A stretch of 13,355 nucleotides of DNA, from assembly GCA_050125095.1 (NCBI GenBank), contig JASFEA010000087.1, forward strand, positions 1 to 13,355. Reading direction: 5' to 3'. The notes under the pieces are model-generated. The model saw nothing but the letters and a program-made list of their open reading frames with translations. It was not told the origin of the DNA and searched no databases. The DNA comes from a bacterium (GTDB taxonomy: Bacteria; Arandabacterota; Arandabacteria; Arandabacterales; JALGWA01). Below, in pieces: positions 3,524-13,355 of the stretch. Both the position numbers and the translations under genes were made by a program. Numbering within the stretch: the first letter of the stretch is position 1; every line of letters begins with the position of its first letter.

Positions 3524-3580
3524 TAATACAGGGAAGAGCCTGCATATTTGTCTCGCCAGAGAAAGGTTGTCGGCTTCGCC

Positions 3581-6500
3581 ATGAGGGTCATCTTCCCCTG
3601 CCTGGTTCTGCTCTTTATCTTATCCCCTGTCCGGGCCGCAGAAGAGGCGTTTGACGTTTCCGCCGACAGGCTGTACGGCCGCCGGACAGCGGAAACCGAG
3701 ATCGTCGTCCTCAAGGACAATGTCAGGATAGTCCACGGCTCCACAGTCGCAACCGCCGACAGCGGCTTCTACGACAAGGCCTCCGAGACCCTCAAGCTCA
3801 TGGGCAGAGCGCGCGTCATGGAAGGGCCCGTGGAGGTGCGCGGAGACGAGTGCGTATACTTCAGGCGGGAGAGGAAGGTTATCTTCCCCCGCGGCATGCA
3901 GGCCCTGGACAGCCTCTCGATGGTCCTGGCCGACAGCGGATCGTATGAGCTCGATATGGAAGTGCTCGATGTCCGCGGCAACGTCTACTACGTAGAGGGC
4001 GACCGCACCATCGAGGCCGACCGCGCCGTCTACCACCGCAAGTCCGAGTTCATAGAGGCCGTGGGCTCCGTGGTCGTAGTCGATGCCGGCTATGGGGCCA
4101 CGCTCAGGGCCGAATACGTGACCTATGACCGGCTGGCGGGATACGGCATAGCCGTCGGGAACCCCGTGCTCGAGCTGAATAGCACGAGAACGGCGGCTGA
4201 GCCGGAATCGCAGGGGCCCTCCGGCGAATCCGTGGAGGGCGAGCCGGCCGACAGCGCGTCCGCCGCGGCAACCGGCCCCGTGCCCGGCGCCCCGCCCGGT
4301 GCCGAGCCCGGTGTCGCGCCCGTACCGGGACCCCGGGCGGCCGAGCCCGCTGCTGAAGAGCCCATCACGGTGAGCTCGGATTCCATGGAGGTCTTCGTAG
4401 ACGAGCACAGGGCCGTGGCCGTTGGTAATGTGAAGATAGTCCGCGGGAGCGTCGTGGGGACGGGCGGCACGGCCATTTTCCTCGACGATGAAGACAGGAC
4501 GATACTGACCGGCAGCCCCTTGCTCGTAGACGGCGAGAGCTCTTTAAGCGGCAATACCATAACCATGTTCAGCACGGGCAACGAAATATCCCGCCTCGAG
4601 GCGGCGGGAACCGCCAAGTCGGTATATCTGACCGAGGGCGGGGAGACGAGCGAGCTGACGGGCGAACATATCACCTTCTCGTTCACGCAAGGGGATCTCA
4701 ACCGCATGTTCGTGGACGGCTCGGCGAAGGGCATATTCTACCCGCCCGAGGCGGACTCGGCCGCTTCGGATTACAGTAACGAGGTTGCGGGCGAGACCAT
4801 CACCATCACATTCGCAGGCAGGGAGGCCGAGAGCGCCGTGGTGACGGGGGGAGTCAAGGGCTCTTACAGAATACAGGGCGACGAGTCCGAGGAGCCGGTC
4901 ACATACGAATGCGACAAGCTGATTTATCAGGTCACAAGCGCGGTCATGGTCCTTGACGGCAACGCGAGGGTCAAGTACGGCAATACGCGGCTCAATTCGC
5001 CGCTCATCGAATACGACTCGCGTTCGTATGTGCTCTTCGCGCCATCGGAACCGGAGCTCTGGGAGGGCGAAGACAGGATCACGGGCACCTCGCTTGCATA
5101 CAATCTGAAGACCCGCCGGGGATCCATCTCCGGCGGCGGCACCAATTACGAGAAGGGCTATTACACCGGCGAGCTTGTGAGGAAGGTGGGCGAGCGGGAG
5201 CTCAACGTCTCCAAGGGCACTTACACCACCTGTGAGCATACGGATGACCCCCACTATTCCTTCACTTCAAGCAAGATGAAGGTCTACCTGGACGACAAAG
5301 TCATAGTCAAGCCTGTCGTACTGAGGGTGCGCGGCATGCCGGTCTTCTGGCTCCCGTTCTACATGTTCCCGATAAAGAAGGGGCGCCACTCGGGCATACT
5401 TATGCCCCGGGTCGAATTCGGGTTCGACGAGGGCAAGGGGCGCTTCGTGCGGAACATCGGTTACTACTACGCTCCCAACGACTACTTGGATTTCTCGCTC
5501 TGGGGCGATTACTACGAGGACGACCGCTGGCTCCTGCATCTGGATTCCAGATACAAGCTCAGGTACGTGCTGAGCGGGGGATTCAATGCCTCATTCACCC
5601 AGGAGCTCGACACCGAGAGCCGGAGGTGGGACCTGGAGGGCAGGCACAGCCAGGAGATCGGCGAGGGAGGGAAGCTGGTAGTCCAGGCCGACTTCGTCAG
5701 CGATGAGAAATACCGTACGGAGACCAGCGAGAACCTGGAGAAGTCCCTGAGGCGCATCCTGGAATCGAGCGTTTCCTATACGCAGAGATGGGAGAAGAGC
5801 AGCCTCAGCATAGCCGCGGACAGGAAGGAGAACCTGGACACGGGCGAGATCACGCAGAAGCTCCCTACCTTCAACTACCTTACGAACAGGCGCACCCTCA
5901 TTGAGGCGTCGCCGGGCGAGAACCGGGTGCACCAGGGCACGTATATTTCAGGGAACCTGACTTTCAGCAACACCTCCAGCGACACGGAGCAGGACAGGAC
6001 CGACAGGCAAAGGGCCCAGCTCAACGCCGCCATTTCGTCCAACCTGAGATTCGCCGACGGCAATCACATTCTCAAGAACTCATCCGTGCTCTCAACCGAC
6101 AGAAAGCCCGGCGACGAGTGGTGCGCCGGATGCGACTCCACGATGCGGGCACACAGCGCCTTCAATAACAGGACGGACTTCACCTTCAGGCTGAACCCGT
6201 GGGCGTCGTTGAACGTAAATCCCAACGTGGCGGCTGCGATAACGGTCTACGATGAGGACATCGAGGGCCAGCGCCTCCCGTTGAGGTTAATATACTGGTA
6301 TTCGATAGCCTCCAACATCACCTTCTACAGAACCTTCAACACCAACCTGGGGGGCCTCAAAGCGCTGCGGCACGTGTTCCTGCCCTCGATAAACTACATA
6401 CATCGCCCCGACTTCTCGGAGTATTCGGGCAGGTTCTACAGCCTGCCCGGCGTAGGGGCCAGCGTGAACAAGTCTATGACCATGAGTATCACGCTCGAGA

Positions 6501-7177
6501 ACAGGTTCCAGGCCAAGATCGGCAGCGGAGAGGACGTAAAGAAGCTGAACAACTTCCTGACACTGACAACCTCTACCACGGCCGACTTCCTCTACAAGGA
6601 AAAGGGAGCCGAAACGCCCTTTTCCACTTTGAACTCGTCGCTCAGGTTCTACCCGCCCGGAGGGGTGAGATTCGACATCAACTTCACAAATGACCCCACG
6701 GACCTCTCCTTCGAAACGCTCAATCTCACCACGAGGTTCGCCTATACGGGCAAAGGTGCGCTGCTCCCGGGTTTTGAGGACCCCGATCGCCAGAACTTCG
6801 AGAGCATGAGGGATCTGACGGGCCAGACGCCATCCTACCAGTTCAACGAGCCCACGGCCAATCCCTGGAACGTATCCGTGATATACCGCCTCAACCGGAC
6901 GTTCGAGACGGGGACGCAGGCTCAGTGGCTCGAGATCCAGACGGGCTTCAACCTGTCCCGGAACTGGCGGGTGGACTACAGCAACCGCTATGACATCACG
7001 CAGCGCGAAATGGCCTACCAGGAGTTCTCGATATACCGGGACCTGCACTGCTGGCAGGCCAGATTCGTGCGCCGCTTCCAGAACGGCAACTGGCAGTATT
7101 ACTTCCGCGTCAACCTCAAGGCCCATCCCGACCTCTACGCCGAGCGCGGCCTCCGGTCGCTCGACCGCGCGTATTAA
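3581..7177 (+). CDS. lptD: LPS-assembly outer membrane protein LptD with extended multi-LptA/OstA-like N-terminal region
   Basis: Signal peptide MRVIFPCLVLLFILSPVRA (ATG 3581; in-frame TTG 3548 is the alternative start). Repeated beta-jellyroll signatures (V+ADR+Y, A+G+V+I, G+P+L). LptD hallmarks GTYTTC...PHY...K...VIVKPVVL...PVFWLPF, NIGYY..PNDY.D, and a C-terminal barrel ending FSIYRDLHCWQARF. Confidence 0.8.
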   Translation: MRVIFPCLVLLFILSPVRAAEEAFDVSADRLYGRRTAETEIVVLKDNVRIVHGSTVATADSGFYDKASETLKLMGRARVMEGPVEVRGDECVYFRRERKVIFPRGMQALDSLSMVLADSGSYELDMEVLDVRGNVYYVEGDRTIEADRAVYHRKSEFIEAVGSVVVVDAGYGATLRAEYVTYDRLAGYGIAVGNPVLELNSTRTAAEPESQGPSGESVEGEPADSASAAATGPVPGAPPGAEPGVAPVPGPRAAEPAAEEPITVSSDSMEVFVDEHRAVAVGNVKIVRGSVVGTGGTAIFLDDEDRTILTGSPLLVDGESSLSGNTITMFSTGNEISRLEAAGTAKSVYLTEGGETSELTGEHITFSFTQGDLNRMFVDGSAKGIFYPPEADSAASDYSNEVAGETITITFAGREAESAVVTGGVKGSYRIQGDESEEPVTYECDKLIYQVTSAVMVLDGNARVKYGNTRLNSPLIEYDSRSYVLFAPSEPELWEGEDRITGTSLAYNLKTRRGSISGGGTNYEKGYYTGELVRKVGERELNVSKGTYTTCEHTDDPHYSFTSSKMKVYLDDKVIVKPVVLRVRGMPVFWLPFYMFPIKKGRHSGILMPRVEFGFDEGKGRFVRNIGYYYAPNDYLDFSLWGDYYEDDRWLLHLDSRYKLRYVLSGGFNASFTQELDTESRRWDLEGRHSQEIGEGGKLVVQADFVSDEKYRTETSENLEKSLRRILESSVSYTQRWEKSSLSIAADRKENLDTGEITQKLPTFNYLTNRRTLIEASPGENRVHQGTYISGNLTFSNTSSDTEQDRTDRQRAQLNAAISSNLRFADGNHILKNSSVLSTDRKPGDEWCAGCDSTMRAHSAFNNRTDFTFRLNPWASLNVNPNVAAAITVYDEDIEGQRLPLRLIYWYSIASNITFYRTFNTNLGGLKALRHVFLPSINYIHRPDFSEYSGRFYSLPGVGASVNKSMTMSITLENRFQAKIGSGEDVKKLNNFLTLTTSTTADFLYKEKGAETPFSTLNSSLRFYPPGGVRFDINFTNDPTDLSFETLNLTTRFAYTGKGALLPGFEDPDRQNFESMRDLTGQTPSYQFNEPTANPWNVSVIYRLNRTFETGTQAQWLEIQTGFNLSRNWRVDYSNRYDITQREMAYQEFSIYRDLHCWQARFVRRFQNGNWQYYFRVNLKAHPDLYAERGLRSLDRAY

Positions 7178-7182
7178 CGGGC

Positions 7183-7211
7183 TTGACCCAGTGCCGGCTT
7201 TGCTGTAGGTT
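7183..7211 (+). promoter_or_regulatory. Putative sigma70-type promoter for the DUF1573-rhodanese-MauE unit
   Basis: TTGACC (7183-7188), 17-nt spacer, TAGGTT (7206-7211), in the intergenic gap. Confidence 0.5.
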
Positions 7212-7276: not shown

Positions 7277-8260
7277 TTGGGCAAATCCCTGTGCGTAGGA
7301 CTGGTTTTCTGGGTAGTTTTCTGCGGGGCGGCCTCTGCGGCCGTCAACTGGCATACGACCGATATCGACGTCGGGCGTATTTACAGGGACGAGCCGCAGA
7401 AGATGTCCTTCGGCTTCGTGAACGCGTCGGATGAGACCCTCTATATTTATGATATCGAGCCCTCATGCGACTGCACCAACGCCCAGGCCATACCCGCGGC
7501 GGTGCCTCCCCATAACTCGGGCGAGATAATGGCCTTCTTCGATCCAATGGGTTATGAGGGCAAGGGCAGGATAACCGAGTTCATCCGGCTCGCGACAAGC
7601 GACCCGGAGACCCCGGATGCGGAGCTTTACTTTACGGTTGACGTCGGCGTGGGCCCCGAGCCCGAGCCCCGCGCCCTCAATTTCGGGAGGATATGCAGGG
7701 GCAGTTCCGACACGCTGGCTCTGGTCGTGCGCCCGGGCTCGGACGACGATCTTGAGATACTCGGCTTCGAAAGCGAAACCGAGTGCGTGCATATAACCCG
7801 GGTGGGCCCCCATAAGGGCGGGGGCGAGGAGTTCAGGGCCATCGTCTGCAACCTGGACTGCAGGGGCGCGGTGTCGAGCTACGTCAACATCAAGACGGCG
7901 GACCCGAAGCGGGAAGTCATCAGGGTGGCGGTTAACGCCAACCTCATGGGGACTATAGTGATCGAGCCGGAGGTCATCGCCTTCGGGCCCACGCTGCCCG
8001 GGAAAGAGGTGGCGCAGAAGGTCAGGGTCTATTGCACCGAAAACCAGCGATTCGAGATAGGGAAGGTCACCTGCACGGCGAATTCGATCGATTGCAGCGT
8101 CACGCTTGCCGAAGAATACGTCTACGAGCTCAGAGTGGCCATTAAGGGAGACGCGCCAGCGGGGCGGGTCTCCGGACAGATACTCATAGAGACCGACTGT
8201 GAAAGCCAGCCCCTCCTGACCGCTAAGGTCACGGGCTATGTAAGGAGCGCGGATAAGTGA
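7277..8260 (+). CDS. Exported DUF1573-domain protein with tandem Ig-like domains and a CxC motif
   Basis: TTG 7277 follows AAGGTGA SD (GTG 7268 and TTG 7223 are alternatives); signal peptide MGKSLCVGLVFWVVFCGAASA; DUF1573 pattern ID+G.I...F.F.N....L.I..I.PSCDCT....VPP..SG.I; two further Ig-like repeats (LNFG, IAFG). The stop overlaps the next start (GTGA). Confidence 0.75.
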   Translation: MGKSLCVGLVFWVVFCGAASAAVNWHTTDIDVGRIYRDEPQKMSFGFVNASDETLYIYDIEPSCDCTNAQAIPAAVPPHNSGEIMAFFDPMGYEGKGRITEFIRLATSDPETPDAELYFTVDVGVGPEPEPRALNFGRICRGSSDTLALVVRPGSDDDLEILGFESETECVHITRVGPHKGGGEEFRAIVCNLDCRGAVSSYVNIKTADPKREVIRVAVNANLMGTIVIEPEVIAFGPTLPGKEVAQKVRVYCTENQRFEIGKVTCTANSIDCSVTLAEEYVYELRVAIKGDAPAGRVSGQILIETDCESQPLLTAKVTGYVRSADK

Positions 8261-8730
8261 CGGAAATACTGACGCGGGCGGTGAAAGAGGCCGTCATCAT
8301 CGTGATCATAGTCGTAATAGTCGCCATGGTGGTGAACCGCGCGCGGGATGAGGGAATCCCCCTTATTGCGGACGCGGAGACCTTCCGGGTGCAGACCAAT
8401 GCCGAGTTCCTGGTCGCCGCCGACGCCAGGGCGTATTTCGATGACGGGTCCGGGATCTTCCTTGATGCCCGCGAGGAGCGCCTCTATGCCGCGGAGCACA
8501 TAGAAGGGGCCCTCAACGTCCCTTCCACGGGCGGCGGTGTGGACGAGATGGCCTACATGGTCCCGGCGGACCCCGTGCTCATCTGCTATTCGGCCGAGAG
8601 CACCGAGCGCGAGGCCGGGGTGATAGCGGATAAGCTCCTTGAGCTGGGATTTACCAGAGTCTACGTGCTCCACGGCGGCCTGGAGGCATGGAAAGCCGAG
8701 GGCCTTCCGACTGTGAAGGAGAGCGAGTAA
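8257..8730 (+). CDS. Membrane-anchored rhodanese-like domain protein
   Basis: AAGGAG SD and GTG start; N-terminal hydrophobic helix; FLDAR....Y..EHIEGALNVP and LLELGFTRVYVLHGGLEAWK rhodanese signatures; active-site loop is atypical (ICYSAEST). Confidence 0.85.
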   Translation: MTEILTRAVKEAVIIVIIVVIVAMVVNRARDEGIPLIADAETFRVQTNAEFLVAADARAYFDDGSGIFLDAREERLYAAEHIEGALNVPSTGGGVDEMAYMVPADPVLICYSAESTEREAGVIADKLLELGFTRVYVLHGGLEAWKAEGLPTVKESE

Positions 8731-9201
8731 ATGAGCGATTTCAGATCGGTGGCGGAGAAGGTCTTCTCAAACAAGTATGTCGTGTTCGCCGCAAGGCTGA
8801 TCCTCGGAGTCGTGTTCATTTACGCTTCCCTGGAGAAGATCCAGAATCCGGAGGGATTCGCCCAGGCGATTTACAACTACAGAATGGTGCCCGAATCGCT
8901 GATAAATATAATGGCGATTCTGCTGCCCTGGCTGGAGCTCATTTGCGGCATCCTGGTTATCGTCGGCGTTTTCGTCAGGGGAAGCGCGCTCCTGATAGGA
9001 GCCATGCTGGCGGTCTTCATCGTGGCGCTGTCGAGCGCTCTCCTGCGGGGGCTCGACATCAGCTGCGGCTGTTTCACGCTTGAGGGGGGACGGGGCATTG
9101 CCGGCAAGACGCTTGTGGAGGACATTCTGCTCATGATATGCGTGGCCATAGCACTTCTCCACGGCGGCAAGGTCTTCTCCTTCAAGAAGGGGCTCAATTG
9201 A
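8731..9201 (+). CDS. MauE/DoxX family redox-associated membrane protein
   Basis: TAAATG coupling; RLILGVVFIYASLEKIQNP..FAQAI.NY, LPWLELICG and GLDISCGCF (MauE-type CGC) motifs; about four TM helices. Confidence 0.9.
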   Translation: MSDFRSVAEKVFSNKYVVFAARLILGVVFIYASLEKIQNPEGFAQAIYNYRMVPESLINIMAILLPWLELICGILVIVGVFVRGSALLIGAMLAVFIVALSSALLRGLDISCGCFTLEGGRGIAGKTLVEDILLMICVAIALLHGGKVFSFKKGLN

Positions 9202-9226
9202 CATAAGCCCCGCTCTGTAGTAATAT
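9198..9226 (+). promoter_or_regulatory. sigma70-type promoter for the selenoprotein unit
   Basis: TTGACA (9198-9203, overlapping the MauE TGA stop), 17-nt spacer, TAATAT (9221-9226). Confidence 0.7.
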
Positions 9227-9262
9227 TAGGCGGCAAAAAGCATGAGATCGGGGGGTTTTCTT

Positions 9263-10627
9263 ATGAAATCGAGTTGGCACATATTCCTCACTCTCACGCT
9301 GCTGTGCCTGCTCACGTCGATGCTGGCGGGCGGTGTCTGCAGCGCCGAGGAAAAGCGCATTATGATCGCGGTCACCGGGGACACCCAGGGCGAGATCGCC
9401 CCCTGCGGGTGACACTCGAGCGATAAGGGTGGTCTGGCCCGGCGGGCCGGCTTCGTTGATTCACTTGCTGAGGAGTACTCCAATTTGCTGCTCCTGGACG
9501 CGGGCAACTTCTTCGGCAGAAGGAGTCCGAGCAAGGAGAAGACGTATACCAAGGTGGTAATCGATTATATGAGGAAGACCGGGTATGACGTGGTCGGTAT
9601 CGGCGAGAGGGAAATGAACTACGGGCTCGCCTTCCTAGATGAGCAGATAAAGCAGGGACAGCTCGAGGCGGTATGCGCCAATCTCTATAATGGCAGCGAC
9701 TCGAGCCTCGTGTTCAGGCCGTACACCGTGCGTGAAGTGGGCGGAGTCAGGATAGGCATCATAGGCCTTCTGAACGACGATCCGCGCAGGGTGGGCGTTT
9801 TCGAGCAGCTGGAAGGCGTCTATGTCACCAATTACTATGAGGCCGCCTACGAGTTCCTTCCCGAGATCGAAGACAAGGCCGACATCGTCATAGCGCTCGC
9901 CGCCATCGGGCTGGGCAACGCCAAGCAGATGGTCAAGGACATCCCGGGTTTTGATGTCGTGCTGGTCGCCCACGGGGCCGACAGGACCCCCATGGCCGAG
10001 AAGGTCAACGAATCCATCATAATGAAGCCGGGCACCAAATCGAGTTCGCTGGGGACACTGCTGCTGGTGTTCGACGAGAACAACACTCTGATCGGCTATG
10101 ACGGCTACACGCACATGCTCAAGAAGAAGGGGCGGACCGATCCGCAGGTCGACAAGGTCGTGAAGGCCTGTGAGGAAAGCGAGGAGCAGAGGGCGAAGCT
10201 CCTGGCCAGGCGCAAGTACAAGCTCCCCAACATACCGCAGCGTCCCGAGGTGCTGGCCGCAAGGGGATATCTCGGATGGAACACGTGCCAGAAGTGCCAC
10301 GGGAAGATCCACGAGAGATGGTCGGAGGGCCCCCACGCGCACGCGTTTGAGACTCTGGCGGCCGACGACAGGTGGAACGATCCGGCGTGCCTGCCGTGCC
10401 ACGTGACCGGTTATGAGATCGCGGCCCAGCGGGATTCATCGGATATAAAGCCCGAGATGTGGAACGTGCAGTGCGAGGCCTGCCACGGCCCGGGTACGAT
10501 GCACCGGCGCGACGGCACCATGGCTCCCGTCGGCGAGAGCGTGTGCCTGAAATGCCATACGCCGGAATGGAGCCCCGACTGGAACTACGAGGAGGCGCTC
10601 AAGCGCGTCGACCACGGAAAGGAATAA
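9263..10627 (+). CDS. Predicted selenoprotein: exported UshA/5'-nucleotidase-like (CxU) domain fused to a tetraheme c554-type cytochrome c (454 aa, Sec at codon 50)
   Basis: ATG 9263 is in frame with the 9485 ORF. Translation: MKSSWHIFLTLTLLCLLTSMLAGGVCSA|EEKRIMIAVTGDTQGEIAPCG-(TGA 9410-9412)-HSSDKGGLARRAGFVD...LLLLDAGNFF. The domain continues across the TGA and a SECIS-like hairpin follows. Four CxxCH motifs at 10286, 10388, 10472 and 10544. Confidence 0.85.
9405..9468 (+). promoter_or_regulatory. Bacterial SECIS-like stem-loop for UGA 9410
   Basis: Upper stem CTGGCCC (9434-9440) / GGGCCGG (9444-9450) with G-led loop GGC; AGCGA (9419-9423) / TCGTT (9453-9457); lower stem GCGGGTGA (9405-9412) / TCACTTGC (9461-9468) containing the UGA. 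Folded by eye. Confidence 0.6.
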
Positions 10628-10637
10628 GGACAGAGGA

Positions 10638-10775
10638 TTGAGGTCCAAAGCGCTCACCATATTATTCATCTTCGTCTTCCTTGTTCTGCTCATAGCGGGC
10701 ATGCGCATGGGCGAACTCGGAGAGAATCTCTTCAACGGCAGCGTGCTATGACTGTCCTGCATAGGGATCGGGTGA
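10638..10775 (+). CDS. Predicted small membrane selenoprotein with C-terminal UxxC-IGIG motif (CD1871A-like CxxC family, 45 aa, Sec at codon 38)
   Basis: TTG 10638, 10 nt after the upstream TAA: MRSKALTILFIFVFLVLLIAGMRMGELGENLFNGSVL-(TGA 10749-10751)-LSCIGIG*. Matches small TM peptides ending CxxCIGIG that precede 4Fe-4S membrane proteins, with TGA at the first Cys position. Confidence 0.85.
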
Positions 10776-10787
10776 TCCCTTCGGTCA
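10749..10787 (+). promoter_or_regulatory. Bacterial SECIS-like stem-loop for UGA 10749
   Basis: Perfect 7-bp stem AGGGATC (10763-10769) / GATCCCT (10774-10780) with loop GGGT starting 18 nt after the UGA; lower stem TGACTG (10749-10754) / CGGTCA (10782-10787). Confidence 0.75.
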
Positions 10788-10813
10788 GGCCCGGGTAACT
10801 AGGAGTCGGGGTT

Positions 10814-11659
10814 ATCGTCGCCAGCATCGGTAGTTTCCTCAGGAAGCGCAGAGTCATACAGGCCATCTCCGCCTACGCCCATAACTTCTATATAACCGGA
10901 TTTATCAGCGTCGGGCTCTACCAGGGCGTCATGAAGAGCTTCTGCGCGCCCGGGCTCAACTGCTATGCCTGCCCTGCCGCGACCTTTTCCTGCCCTATCG
11001 GAACGCTTCAGCACTACGGCGTGGTCCGGCAGGTGCCGTACTTTCTGCTGGGATTTCTCGGGCTCGTCGGCCTGGGCGTAGCCAGGTTCACATGCGGCTG
11101 GCTCTGCCCGTTCGGTTTCTTCCAGGACATGATGAAGAAGATATCGAAGCGCGTGGTGCCGCTTCCGCCGCGGCTGACGTATCTCAAGTACGCTTTTCTC
11201 ATCGTGCCGGCGATTCTGCTGCCCATCTATCTGGGCGATTCCTGGTTCTCGAAACTCTGTCCGGCGGGCGGCCTGACTGCGGCGCTTCCCTGGGTGCTCA
11301 TGGACACGTCGCGGTCGGAGTCTCTCATGGGGATGGAAGTGAGACCCCTGGTAGGTACCCTCTTCTATATCAAGATGGTGATACTCGCGGCCTTCCTCGT
11401 GGGCATGGTCTTCATAAAGCGCCCCTTCTGCCGCCTGATGTGCCCCCTGGGAGCCATACTCTCGCTGTTCAACCGGTTCAGCATATTGCGGCTCAGGGTC
11501 GAAAAAGCCGCGTGCACCGGTTGCGGCCAATGCCACGCCAACTGCCCGGTGGACATATACCCCTACACCGAGGTCGACTCGCCCAACTGCATCAAGTGCC
11601 TCGAATGCACCAGGTGCCCCGAGGGCGCCATCAGGATTCAAGCGGTGCTGGGCAGGTAG
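10814..11659 (+). CDS. Membrane 4Fe-4S binding protein (NapH/MauN/RdxA-like polyferredoxin)
   Basis: CAPGLNCYACP..SCPIG, RFTCGWLCPFG, FSKLCPAG, RPFCRLMCPLG, CTGCGQCHANCP, CIKCLECTRCP; several TM helices. The frame is open back to TAA 10796-10798 and contains the family-typical RRVIQ N-terminus. The start is placed at ATC 10814 behind AGGAG and is uncertain; the first ATG is 10931. Confidence 0.8.
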   Translation: MVASIGSFLRKRRVIQAISAYAHNFYITGFISVGLYQGVMKSFCAPGLNCYACPAATFSCPIGTLQHYGVVRQVPYFLLGFLGLVGLGVARFTCGWLCPFGFFQDMMKKISKRVVPLPPRLTYLKYAFLIVPAILLPIYLGDSWFSKLCPAGGLTAALPWVLMDTSRSESLMGMEVRPLVGTLFYIKMVILAAFLVGMVFIKRPFCRLMCPLGAILSLFNRFSILRLRVEKAACTGCGQCHANCPVDIYPYTEVDSPNCIKCLECTRCPEGAIRIQAVLGR

Positions 11660-11661
11660 GC

Positions 11662-12411
11662 ATGGCTGGGGACTGGCGGGACGCGCTGGCCGGGCTCAAC
11701 CTGACCCGCGACTCCTATGTTACCGTTCTTACGGGCTCCGGATTCTCGGCCGAGAGCGGGGTTCCCACTTTCAGGGGCGAGGACGGCCTCTGGAGGAACT
11801 TCCGGGCCCAGGACCTGGCGACCCCCGAGGCCTTCGCCAGGGATCCCCGGCTCGTCTGGGAGTGGTATGACTGGCGAAGGGGCATAATAGCGGGTAAAGA
11901 GCCCAATCCCGCGCATTACGCCGTCACCGACCTTGAGAACATGTTCGAGCGATTCCTGCTTATCACGCAGAACGTCGACGGCCTTCACCGCCGCGCGGGC
12001 ACGGTGAAACTCGTGGAACTCCATGGATACATATTCGGGATGCGCTGCACGGCGGATGGGACGGTAACAGAAAACCTCGAAGTGCCGCTTGCCGCTATAC
12101 CGCCTGAGTGCGATTGCGGGGCGATGCTCCGGCCCGATGTGGTCTGGTTCGGGGAGGCCCTGCCGGAGCGCGCGATAACCGCAGCGCTCGACGCCTCGCG
12201 CGAGTGCGACCTCATGCTGGTCGCCGGCACGGCCGCAGTCGTCCAGCCCGCCGCTTCCATGCCGCTCATGGCCAAGCAGGCCGGCGCCTTCGTAATCGAA
12301 ATAAACACCGAGTTCACGCCCATATCCCCGTATGTCGACCTGACGCTCCAGGGCAAGGCGGGGGCGATGATGACGCAGATGGTGTCGGCCTTGAGAGACC
12401 TCATAACTTAG
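11662..12411 (+). CDS. cobB: NAD-dependent protein deacylase, class III sirtuin
   Basis: ATG 2 nt after the upstream TAG; VLTGSGFSAESGVPTFRG, WEWYDWRR (Tyr/Arg pair of desuccinylase-type CobB), ITQNVDGLH, ELHG, LRPDVVWFGE, VQPAA, IEIN motifs. Confidence 0.95.
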   Translation: MAGDWRDALAGLNLTRDSYVTVLTGSGFSAESGVPTFRGEDGLWRNFRAQDLATPEAFARDPRLVWEWYDWRRGIIAGKEPNPAHYAVTDLENMFERFLLITQNVDGLHRRAGTVKLVELHGYIFGMRCTADGTVTENLEVPLAAIPPECDCGAMLRPDVVWFGEALPERAITAALDASRECDLMLVAGTAAVVQPAASMPLMAKQAGAFVIEINTEFTPISPYVDLTLQGKAGAMMTQMVSALRDLIT

Positions 12412-12468: not shown

Positions 12469-13355
12469 ATGAGGTATCGCTTCGCCACACCTTCTTTCCT
12501 TATAGCTCTGGCCCTCAGTCTGCTCATAGCCCTCGCTTTCACGGCGCCGGCGGCCGCCCAGGATGATCCCAGGTTCATATCCTTCGACGAGGCCGCGCCC
12601 GAGACCGACCCGGACCACAACAGCAACGCCGAAGCCGATCTCACTTACACATACGGCTACGTGGCCGGTGACACTCTTGTTATCGAGCTCGACTTCGCGA
12701 GCGAGTGGGGCGAGATGCACCTTATGGTTGCGCTGGAGCGGAACCGCGACGCCGATGGGGGCGCCTCAGACCCCTTCGAGTTCCCCGTGACGTACGGGCA
12801 CGCCGACAAGCCCGACTACGTCTTCACATACAAGTACAGCGCAAACGACTATGCCGACCTCAGGCGCTGGGGCGAGGGCGCCTGGGAGTTCTGGGCGCTC
12901 AGCAAGAGCACCTGGACCACGGATGAGGGGGATCCCGACAAGAACGCCCTCGGCATGGTGACAAAGACGGCCGATAAGGTCGTCTTCGCCTTCCCGTTCG
13001 ACGCCGTGGGCGGCGTGGCCCCGGACGATACCGTAATGGTGGAGGCCTATGTGACGCAGGAGCCGGGCGGTACCAAGTACAACGCGCTTGACTCCAACCC
13101 CCACGACGCTACCAATGACATGCTGCCCGACGCCGGAGACTGGACGGACACGGCCACCGAGACCGTGAACCTCTCGCAATGGGCCGAATGGGTGATTCCC
13201 GAATTCGGCGCCCCGCCCGCGCTCTCGGAGGCCGCAGCCGACCCGGATACGGTGCGGGGCTCGGAAGATGTGCTATTCAGCGTGCGGGTTACGGACGCCG
13301 GCGGGGGCATAGGCGACGTTACCGTCAACCTCTCGGCGCTCGGCGGCGAGGCGGA
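12469..13355 (+). CDS. Large secreted protein, 5' part (acidic beta-sandwich, possibly DOMON-like carbohydrate-binding domain plus Ig-like domain); truncated by the window edge
   Basis: AAGGGA SD and ATG 12469; signal peptide MRYRFATPSFLIALALSLLIALAFTAPAAA|QDD; open frame with no stop to the window end (hence absent from the ORF track); Asp/Trp/Thr-rich; ends ...VLFSVRVTDAGGGIGDVTVNLSALGGEA. The coding call is strong; the function is weak. Confidence 0.7.
   Translation, partial: MRYRFATPSFLIALALSLLIALAFTAPAAAQDDPRFISFDEAAPETDPDHNSNAEADLTYTYGYVAGDTLVIELDFASEWGEMHLMVALERNRDADGGASDPFEFPVTYGHADKPDYVFTYKYSANDYADLRRWGEGAWEFWALSKSTWTTDEGDPDKNALGMVTKTADKVVFAFPFDAVGGVAPDDTVMVEAYVTQEPGGTKYNALDSNPHDATNDMLPDAGDWTDTATETVNLSQWAEWVIPEFGAPPALSEAAADPDTVRGSEDVLFSVRVTDAGGGIGDVTVNLSALGGEA

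Follow-up and report, generated by a model that had tools for sequence, protein, structure and literature searches.

A lineage-specific six-gene cluster with two tandem genes best read as selenoprotein genes and a membrane polyferredoxin

What kind of system is encoded where two consecutive genes, each crossed by an in-frame TGA codon, lie directly upstream of a gene for an iron-sulfur membrane protein? The question is raised by a stretch of 13,355 nucleotides (nt) from an Arandabacterota bacterium (assembly GCA_050125095.1, contig JASFEA010000087.1), which we call the window and of which positions 7277 to 11659 hold six genes, g1 to g6. With a rough probability of 0.42, we read these genes as a lineage-specific operon, in a bacterium that is Eisenbacteria-like and falls in the FCB group, that would string together three older extracytoplasmic redox modules, with electrons passing from the polyferredoxin g6 to the tail of the small peptide g5 and from there to the tetraheme protein g4. 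Both TGA codons would be translated as selenocysteine (Sec, U). The six genes are as follows.

g1, 7277..8260, + strand: DUF1573 protein; candidate starts are TTG 7223, GTG 7268 and TTG 7277
g2, 8257..8730, + strand: rhodanese-domain protein; open reading frame (ORF) call, PF00581
g3, 8731..9201, + strand: MauE/DoxX membrane protein; ORF call, PF07291
g4, 9242..10627, + strand: UshA-like (seleno)protein; in-frame TGA at 9410-9412, NF041198
g5, 10638..10775, + strand: peptide of 45 amino acids (aa) with a single transmembrane (TM) helix; start TTG, Sec TGA at 10749-10751, stop TGA at 10773-10775
g6, open frame 10799..11659, + strand: Fer4_5 membrane polyferredoxin; PF12801

An initial annotation had described six tightly coupled ORFs with Cys or Sec motifs, and ORF and motif reading confirmed both the genes and the motifs at the positions claimed. 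The spacing proved equally tight: the overlap of g1 with g2 is 4 nt, g3 begins directly after g2, and gaps of 40 nt and 10 nt separate g3 from g4 and g4 from g5. Support was also found for the view that the products are exported or membrane proteins of redox type, as by our count all six are predicted extracytoplasmic or membrane proteins and carry redox Cys/Sec motifs.

Judged from their homologues, the two in-frame TGA codons (9410-9412 in g4 and 10749-10751 in g5) are best read as Sec. The earlier claim of two adjacent, genuine selenoprotein genes is thereby upheld, with Cys at the same positions in homologues and conserved residues past both codons. A genome scan with g4 gave 80 species-level loci holding relatives, across which the codon aligned to U57 of g4 is TGA in 45 and Cys in 12, the motif not being found by regular expression in 23; C55-G56-C57 is invariant in 11 full-length Cys homologues. 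For g5, the window and two syntenic loci, L001 and L002, all read ...L-TGA-LSCIGIG-TGA. The seven codons past the first TGA vary only synonymously among the three (CTG/CTA; TCC/TCT/AGC; GGG/GGA), and the N-terminal part of the peptide is only 43 to 44% identical among the same orthologues. Furthermore, 10 homologues of g5, 44 to 47 aa in length, end in LCLSCIGIG, with Cys at the Sec position. Each of the two genes also has a hairpin resembling a selenocysteine insertion sequence (SECIS).

9431..9453, + strand: SECIS-like hairpin of g4, CUGGCCC / GGC loop / GGGCCGG
10763..10780, + strand: SECIS-like hairpin of g5, A GGGAUC / GGGU / GAUCCC U, with the stop TGA within it

The hairpin of g5 is better conserved at the DNA level than any other block of the region, and in L001 it carries a compensatory G>A / C>U pair (GGAAUC...GAUUCC). 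Hairpins of at least 5 bp at +15 to +55 after the g4 codon occur in 41 of 46 TGA-type genes versus 5 of 12 Cys-type genes, a comparison among related sequences that is only indicative. A permissive Rfam scan of the window returned two sub-threshold matches to miRNA models and no SECIS-type family. The real stop of g5 is the second TGA, 8 codons past the Sec TGA, which falls in the loop and 3′ arm of the hairpin; this location may be what prevents its recoding. We rejected the second TGA as a Sec codon, as the sequence downstream is unconserved (SLRSGPGN, FLRE, SPPCLRS) and the Cys homologues terminate at ...CIGIG.

Standard gene callers had been expected to mishandle both genes, and they do. 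All 55 close homologues of g4 in the protein collection (identity 58 to 91%, length 289 to 411 aa, query coverage 62 to 86%) begin past the TGA and are therefore truncated gene calls. Similarly, three Sec-type g5 peptides, one of them the window's own, are stored as stubs of 37 to 39 aa that end exactly at the TGA. With both genes cut in this way, selenoproteome counts in these lineages are too low.

Of the two selenoprotein genes, g4 has the better-known relatives. Read with TGA as U, it scores 282.2 bits against NF041198 (cut-off 275) and is a full-length member of that curated, published family, a placement that overturns its earlier treatment as unrecognized; scored separately, its halves reach 161.2 and 120.8 bits. 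The lower score is that of the C-terminal 131 aa, which match positions 403-519 of the model. Because the heme domain belongs to the model in this way, the architecture of g4 is not new. The protein has 461 aa compared with 519 model positions, of which positions 308-402 are unmatched. Its PCGU motif is encoded at 9401-9412, Sec being residue 57, and four CxxCH motifs (C349/C352/H353, C383/C386/H387, C411/C414/H415 and C435/C438/H439) are invariant in the alignment. The tetraheme domain is c554-like, with matches to PF13435 and to PDB entry 1bvb (E = 4.7e-6), and a hydropathy scan places a hydrophobic export segment at the N terminus. In the available text of the 2008 selenoproteome from the GOS (Global Ocean Sampling) survey, the family is listed as "COG0737, UshA-like" with a CxU motif and is among the 20 major selenoprotein families of the survey samples (PMC2398784). 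It also appears in the table of 119 selenoprotein families in a 2026 review (PMC13188914, section 7), and the portions of the two papers at hand give no function for it.

The AlphaFold 2 (AF2) model of g4 has a predicted local distance difference test (pLDDT) score of 79.4, and its best Foldseek matches are 3ivd and 2ush, which have the 5′-nucleotidase fold (E ~1e-24 to 1e-23, TMq 0.54). Although the fold is kept, the phosphoesterase metal and catalytic motifs DxH, GD and GNH(E/D) are not found in g4: motif I reads GDTQGE followed by P-C-G-U, and in the alignment DAGN stands at the GD motif (D-N-G-D) and GERE at the GNHE motif. On its sequence, then, g4 is not a phosphoesterase but a protein in which metal-binding and catalytic residues were replaced on a 5′-nucleotidase fold. 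An analogy that had been drawn with the Geobacter Ext cluster did not hold, as the 17 NCBIfam families that g4 matches at E <= 0.01 do not include ExtKL (NF040886).

The second selenoprotein gene, g5, encodes a peptide of 45 aa with a TM helix at residues 4-22, N-terminal K/R, an acidic tail and the end L-U-LS-C-IGIG. This is the layout of the CD1871A family CXXC motif-containing protein (NF040920), namely about 45 aa, one N-terminal TM helix and a C-terminal CxxC-IGIG, with Sec in place of the first Cys. The Sec forms match the model end to end but under its cut-off of 32 (window, 8.8 bits; L001, 15.4; L002, 10.2). Relatives with Cys range from 9.4 to 55 bits, 2 of 10 being above the cut-off (P0127, 29.5; P0131, 42.4; P0136, 55), and by these scores they belong to, or border, the CD1871A family. 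Alternation of Sec and Cys at the first cysteine of the peptide identifies this position as the redox-active nucleophile. Searching 1.84 billion proteins with a profile built from the Cys forms gave 1447 cluster representatives at E <= 0.001; of the top 150, 130 end in CxxC-hGhG with at most 2 residues after it (h = I/V/L/M, A also being allowed at the second h). A scan of all loci for the motif U/CxxC-hGhG-stop (h = I/V/L) returned just the three known copies. NCBIfam gives the CD1871A family no "(seleno)" label, and the family is missing from the table of 119 selenoprotein families in the accessible part of the review (PMC13188914). Literature searches gave nothing on "CD1871A", and the matches listed for "CIGIG" were unrelated; an earlier description of the Sec form or of its neighborhood is possible.

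Directly downstream of g5, g6 matches PF12801 (Fer4_5) at 54.2 bits (cut-off 22). Its motifs are two CX3CP (CGWLCP and CRLMCP) and two of [4Fe-4S] ferredoxin type, CTGCGQCHANCP and CIKCLECTRCP. An alignment of 38 relatives shows 17 Cys that are invariant or almost so, and these make up the two ferredoxin motifs, the two CX3CP motifs, an N-terminal C-x5-C-x2-CP-x5-CP and one loop CP. The hydropathy scan counts 3 to 4 TM helices, with 5 K/R in the loop at residues 107-128; there is also a weakly hydrophobic helix at residues 20-42, and AF2 makes residues 4-37 helical at low confidence.

The order g5-g6 is found in the window, L001 and L002, and the same pairing recurs in Peptoclostridium acidaminophilum (L081, an 809-kb replicon), where a CD1871A peptide overlaps the start of a 4Fe-4S binding protein (EAL2_RS15620 / EAL2_RS14575). 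The latter shares 43.9% identity with g6 across 93% of its length and keeps the N-terminal Cys motif. Judged by homology, g5+g6 is a conserved two-gene membrane module across phyla, of which g5 is here the selenium form. A co-fold of a natural Cys-type pair, P0164 with P0122, scored 0.40, the best control reaching 0.01, with contact agreement of at least 82% and partner pLDDT of at least 71. The two proteins are presumed to lie on one contig, both listing a longest contig of 4436; in the ESM Atlas, P0122 matched unnamed clusters at 0.87 to 0.88, under the level that counts. Of 80 solved complexes 58 reach the co-fold mark, as do 2 of 110 mismatched pairs, with 7 of the 80 and both passing mismatches at <=0.60; because custom alignments were used, these benchmark counts hold only roughly. 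In the Peptoclostridium locus, a TlpA disulfide reductase gene (L081 4751-5341) lies 1.5 kb upstream of the peptide/polyferredoxin pair, with an MFS transporter gene between them on the opposite strand.

The remaining genes, g1 to g3, also encode proteins with paired Cys or rhodanese domains. The product of g1 matches PF07610 at 58.3 bits (cut-off 26.1) and NF041425 (OS_HP2 (seleno)protein) at 51.6 bits, under the cut-off of 100, with the CxC motif present as Cys. This motif, CDC (TGC GAC TGC at 7466-7474), is part of EPSCDCT, which is invariant across the window, L001 and L002; the N terminus has a hydrophobic segment in the hydropathy scan. In the accessible part of the GOS study, selenoproteins of the OS_HP2/DUF1573 type have UxC at the comparable motif (PMC2398784), and on its sequence g1 represents, with Cys, a further (seleno)protein family that is already known. 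For g2, the match to PF00581 is 49 bits (cut-off 22.2), the hydropathy scan gives a single N-terminal TM helix at residues 8-26, and the TsoB model scores 21.9 bits against a cut-off of 805. Finally, g3 matches PF07291 (MauE) at 101.7 bits, above the Pfam gathering score of 27, and its CGC motif (TGC GGC TGT at 9064-9072) stands in a DISCGCF that is invariant in the three orthologues.

We asked how often the six genes occur together, as they had been expected to do. The full set, in the same order, was found by tblastn, local hidden Markov models (HMMs) and a motif scan in 2 of the 80 g4 loci, namely the two nearest relatives, L001 (65% g4 identity) and L002 (58%, labeled Eisenbacteria); the expectation stands for these and falls for the other 78. 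When local HMMs of g1, g2, g3 and g6 were run against all ORFs of the 80 loci, L001 and L002 were joined by two weak single matches (L070, g1, E = 1.5e-4; L074, g2, E = 1.1e-6). The stop TGA of g4 and the start TTG of g5 overlap (TTGA) in both L001 and L002, so that the two genes are translationally coupled in these relatives. Meanwhile, the longest contig is of identical size for 17 of 55 close g4 homologues and one of 62 close g6 homologues (13 of 23 for contigs of at least 5 kb), and these matching sizes suggest, indirectly, that g4 and g6 are linked in 17 further metagenome contigs. Altogether, the six-gene cluster is a lineage-specific assembly of three pre-existing modules and not a widely conserved system.

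How might such an assembly work? A path for electrons from g6 through g5 to g4 is plausible, and we infer it as follows. By the positive-inside rule, the ferredoxin domain of g6, its [4Fe-4S] motifs and both CX3CP loops would be cytoplasmic, and the tail of g5 would be periplasmic; if the g6 helix at residues 20-42 crosses the membrane, the loop with four Cys would lie outside, beside the g5 tail. Electrons from a cytoplasmic donor or the quinol pool would pass through g6 to the C-terminal U-x-x-C tail of g5, which would cycle between selenenylsulfide and selenol/thiol and then serve periplasmic clients. The pair would thus be an iron-sulfur-driven functional analogue of DsbD/CcdA, with selenium replacing the first cysteine. 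In this clade g4 would be the obvious client of g5 because it is the sole translationally coupled partner. It would be a catalytically dead 5′-nucleotidase fold with Cys-Gly-Sec at the former first metal-binding motif and four c-type hemes fused to it, and a C-G-U motif placed in such an oxyanion-binding fold, with four hemes connected to it, points to redox chemistry whose target is a disulfide or a compound of sulfur or selenium type. We propose that the substrate which g4 may reduce or oxidize is a disulfide, a sulfane compound or a small oxyanion of sulfur or selenium type, with electrons exchanged via its hemes, the g5 tail or both. The products of g1 to g3 (CxC DUF1573, anchored rhodanese and CGC MauE/DoxX) could form a thiol or sulfane carrier set in the same compartment. 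The wider form of this proposal, in which g5+g6 would be a widespread, uncharacterized iron-sulfur route of reducing power across the cytoplasmic membrane, here upgraded with Sec and wired to a UshA-like tetraheme selenoprotein, we regard as unlikely.

Several results weigh against the operon reading. The folding energy of the 60 nt past each TGA equals that of shuffles (z = -0.18 and -0.39), and the minimum free energy of TGA-type and Cys-type g4 genes is indistinguishable (p = 0.44). No Sec machinery, cytochrome c maturation genes or tRNA, tRNA-Sec included, were found in the window and the two 20-kb loci L001 and L002. AF2 models g6 poorly (pLDDT 63.8, Cys loops <50); Foldseek with the resulting model gave 0 matches at E <= 0.001, and a profile search of the PDB matched ferredoxin domains only, leaving the membrane part without a solved relative. 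The co-fold described above passes in the weak class and was made with relatives, not with the window's own pair, and the sole basis of the topology is the hydropathy scan with the positive-inside rule. The rhodanese active-site Cys of g2, present in the window and L002, is Thr in L001.

The start of g6 is a further difficulty. Coding begins upstream of the ATG at 10931, as RKRRVIQ... aligns with the N termini of relatives, and 10799-10930 has no in-frame ATG, GTG or TTG, which leaves g6 without a canonical start in this lineage. Where relatives at 72 to 85% identity (P0137, P0138, P0140 and P0145) have the ATG of MKRR, the codon of g6 at 10841-10843 is AGG. The start loss is shared and no read error, because the closest relatives, P0139 (92%) and P0143 (89%), are also called from later starts. 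An AGGAG (10801-10805) lies 8 nt ahead of an in-frame ATC at 10814, and this ATC may be a non-canonical start of g6. We rejected a -1 frameshift fusing g5 to g6 at C CCG GGT, because the -1 frame hits a TAA at 10796-10798.

Other counterevidence comes from gene neighborhoods, and it is also what speaks for the main rival, that the three modules are independent and merely neighbors through local genome compaction in one lineage, with g4 a stand-alone periplasmic selenoenzyme, as it is in most phyla, g5+g6 a separate redox pair of the membrane and g1-g3 a thiol-handling set of their own. In 78 of the 80 loci, g1, g2, g3 and g6 are missing near the g4 relative, and the Peptoclostridium g5+g6 pair occurs without g4; the modules therefore do not need each other. 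Of the 58 loci that extend 4 kb or more upstream, 22 have the g4 relative placed simply after LptD. All window ORFs with a family match are on the + strand, so that the co-orientation of the six genes is not distinctive, and tight packing on a shared strand extends over the whole window, including LptD and Sir2. Because packing and co-orientation reach these flanking genes, the operon boundaries are undefined. A promoter-like site at 9198 moreover sits between g3 and g4. Against simple neighborhood stand the g1-g6 order kept in L001 and L002 at 58 to 65% g4 identity, the overlap of g4 stop and g5 start in both, the 17 contig-size coincidences that tie g4 to g6 relatives and the redox Cys/Sec motifs that all products, extracytoplasmic or membrane-bound, carry. 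We consider this rival somewhat unlikely.

A second rival would have g5+g6 handle a metal or metalloid, with g6 reducing Cu, Hg, selenite or tellurite on the U/CxxC of g5 and g4 acting on the same element. It is favored by the Fer4_5 architecture of g6, which CcoG itself presumably shares, by the terminal CxxC/UxxC motifs, which are common metal ligands, and by a weak match of g6 to an HgcAB-like model (26 bits, cut-off 285). According to the available part of the report on it (PMC7558416), CcoG is a cupric reductase of the membrane that contains two [4Fe-4S] clusters. Set against these points, the 15 NCBIfam matches of g6 include none to the CcoG family, the Pfam matches of the window show neither a metal transporter nor a chaperone or metal sensor, and the gene near the Peptoclostridium pair is a TlpA disulfide reductase, not a metal gene. 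A metal or metalloid role is, in our view, distinctly unlikely.

Far less probable still is a Nap/Mau-type system, in which g3, as a MauE, and g6, as a NapH/MauN quinol dehydrogenase, would work for a nitrate reductase or methylamine dehydrogenase encoded elsewhere. The Pfam match of g3 to MauE fits it, as do the two CX3CP and two ferredoxin motifs that g6 has in common with NapH and the best NCBIfam names of g6, which are napH_ (TIGR02163), NapH (PRK09477) and NosR. All three matches are far under their curated cut-offs, at 52.8 bits against 213, 45.6 against 234 and 43.8 against 1000, and the earlier naming of g6 as NapH/MauN falls with the first of them. Neither the window nor the syntenic loci hold NapG, NapA, NapB, MauA, MauB, MauD or MauM, and the annotation was correct that the window has no methylamine dehydrogenase or nitrate reductase gene; furthermore, the g6 subfamily has an N-terminal Cys motif and a peptide partner of its own. 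Least credible of all are ordinary stops at both TGAs. In that case g4 would be shorter or a pseudogene, g5 would have 37 residues, and conservation further downstream would act at the RNA level only. Such stops would suit hairpin energies no better than shuffles and public gene calls that end at the TGA but not the amino acid conservation across both codons with synonymous codon changes, Cys at the exact positions in 12 (g4) and 10 (g5) homologues, or an NF041198 cut-off passed only by read-through (282 bits versus 161 and 121 for the parts).

The surroundings of the cluster include two further features to which the argument has referred.

11662-12411, + strand: Sir2/CobB deacylase gene, starting 3 nt past the g6 stop and syntenic in L001 and L002
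9198..9226, + strand: promoter-like site TTGACA, 17 nt, TAATAT; a consensus match only (10/12) that overlaps the g3 stop

Promoters had been proposed at 7183 and 9198. The second was recovered by our consensus scan and the first was not; the scan returned 5 sites in 5.6 kb versus 1.6 +/- 1.2 in shuffles. Upstream of g1, the + strand carries genes for an acetyl-CoA carboxylase subunit, a Mur-ligase/FolC-type protein, an ABC ATPase and LptD (3548-7177). Both LptD upstream and Sir2 downstream are in place in L002, and L001 keeps Sir2 with no LptD upstream. Beyond Sir2, an ORF at 12469-13353 (295 aa, open at the window end) is without a Pfam or NCBIfam match and is 56 to 57% identical in L001 and L002. 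Foreign origin of the cluster was considered and rejected, the GC content being even at 0.58 to 0.65 across the window.

Among the other g4 loci, the family gene lies just downstream of LptD on the same strand in the 22 loci counted above, with a gap of 199 to 1066 bp in 21 of them. Metagenome-assembled genomes (MAGs) labeled Krumholzibacteria, Fibrobacteraceae and Eisenbacteria are included, and the window's clade holds g1 to g3 in this gap.

g4-LptD loci: L003, L005, L006, L008-L013, L017-L020, L023, L024, L026-L028, L030, L036, L043, and L002

Pfam annotation of 132 neighboring ORFs in loci L003-L050 showed no recurrent redox partner of g4; the neighbors are LptD, HU, RNase T, FlgD_ig proteins and a few DsbA/thioredoxin genes (L032, L033 and L037). 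In four loci, a conserved secreted protein of ~275 to 287 aa with no Pfam match follows the g4 homologue (L009:11208-12041, L017:11214-12038, L019:4422-5285 and L020:11252-12091). It precedes an RNase T-type exonuclease gene in three of the four, the next ORF in L019 being without a Pfam match, and the MAGs are labeled Krumholzibacteria and Fibrobacteraceae. Two loci have a different neighbor, a fusion of a multiheme c-type cytochrome with cytochrome b561 (PF01292) of 656 to 670 aa, beside the g4 homologue on the opposite strand.

L029:11686-13656, - strand: multiheme c-type/cytochrome b561 fusion
L031:11569-13581, - strand: multiheme c-type/cytochrome b561 fusion

This fusion could be an alternative membrane electron conduit for the g4 family, and its presence fits the idea that g4 needs some conduit of this kind. 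MauE neighborhoods on plasmids were uninformative.

If the wider proposal for g5+g6 is right, the UshA-like selenoprotein family would gain its first functional context. The UshA-like selenoprotein is here translationally linked to a defined membrane module, which provides a concrete partner to test. The CxxC-IGIG peptide family, with its 1447 cluster representatives, is large and unstudied, and g5+g6 is a worthwhile, testable module in its own right.

Comparison with known systems shows which parts of the cluster are familiar. NapH has a four-helix topology with both ends cytoplasmic, with which the hydropathy of g6 is compatible. NapH/MauN and g6 are both membrane proteins with two CX3CP and two C-terminal [4Fe-4S] motifs; g6 differs in failing the family cut-offs, in having no NapG/MauM partner and in its extra C-x5-C-x2-CP-x5-CP, CP loop and peptide partner. 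CcoG is likewise a membrane polyferredoxin with two [4Fe-4S] clusters, one that reduces its substrate at the membrane (PMC7558416, in the part available). Unlike CcoG/FixG, g6 has no CcoG-family match, no ccoHIS and no Ig-like C-terminal domain.

For g1 to g3, the accessible text on the DoxX-SseA-SodA membrane oxidoreductase complex of Mycobacterium tuberculosis describes a DoxX-type protein working with a rhodanese-type/thiol protein (PMC6930017). Both this complex and MauE/MauD resemble g1-g3 in placing a MauE/DoxX-type protein beside a rhodanese or thiol protein. Here, MauD, methylamine dehydrogenase and SodA are absent, and the partners are DUF1573 and an anchored rhodanese whose Cys is lost in L001. 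Adjacent selenoprotein genes and Sec in a multiheme cytochrome also have precedents, as SAO and Tso are multi-selenoprotein operons and ExtKL of Geobacter is a multiheme selenoprotein (PMC13188914, in the sections available). The likeness ends there, as no Sao, Tso or ExtKL model in NCBIfam matches g4 or g5.

The proposed job of g5+g6 would be like that of DsbD/CcdA, to which they have no sequence relation, with iron-sulfur clusters replacing the Cys cascade. DsbD and CcdA bring reducing power from the cytoplasmic side to extracytoplasmic dithiols through such a cascade, fed by thioredoxin. The TlpA-type reductase gene near the Peptoclostridium pair adds to the likeness. With the CD1871A family (NF040920), g5 shares its size, TM helix, C-terminal end and a g6-type polyferredoxin downstream; it differs by having Sec for the first Cys, as its orthologues in L001 and L002 also do, and it is linked to the family through the intermediates P0127, P0131 and P0136. 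The UshA-like family (NF041198) has the same P-C-G-U and C-terminal multiheme region as g4, which scores over its cut-off; g4 is shorter and shares its proposed operon with another selenoprotein and a polyferredoxin, an arrangement missing in 78 of 80 family loci. The g4 family was thus known already; what looks new is that the CxxC-IGIG peptide occurs in a Sec form, and in tandem with g4.

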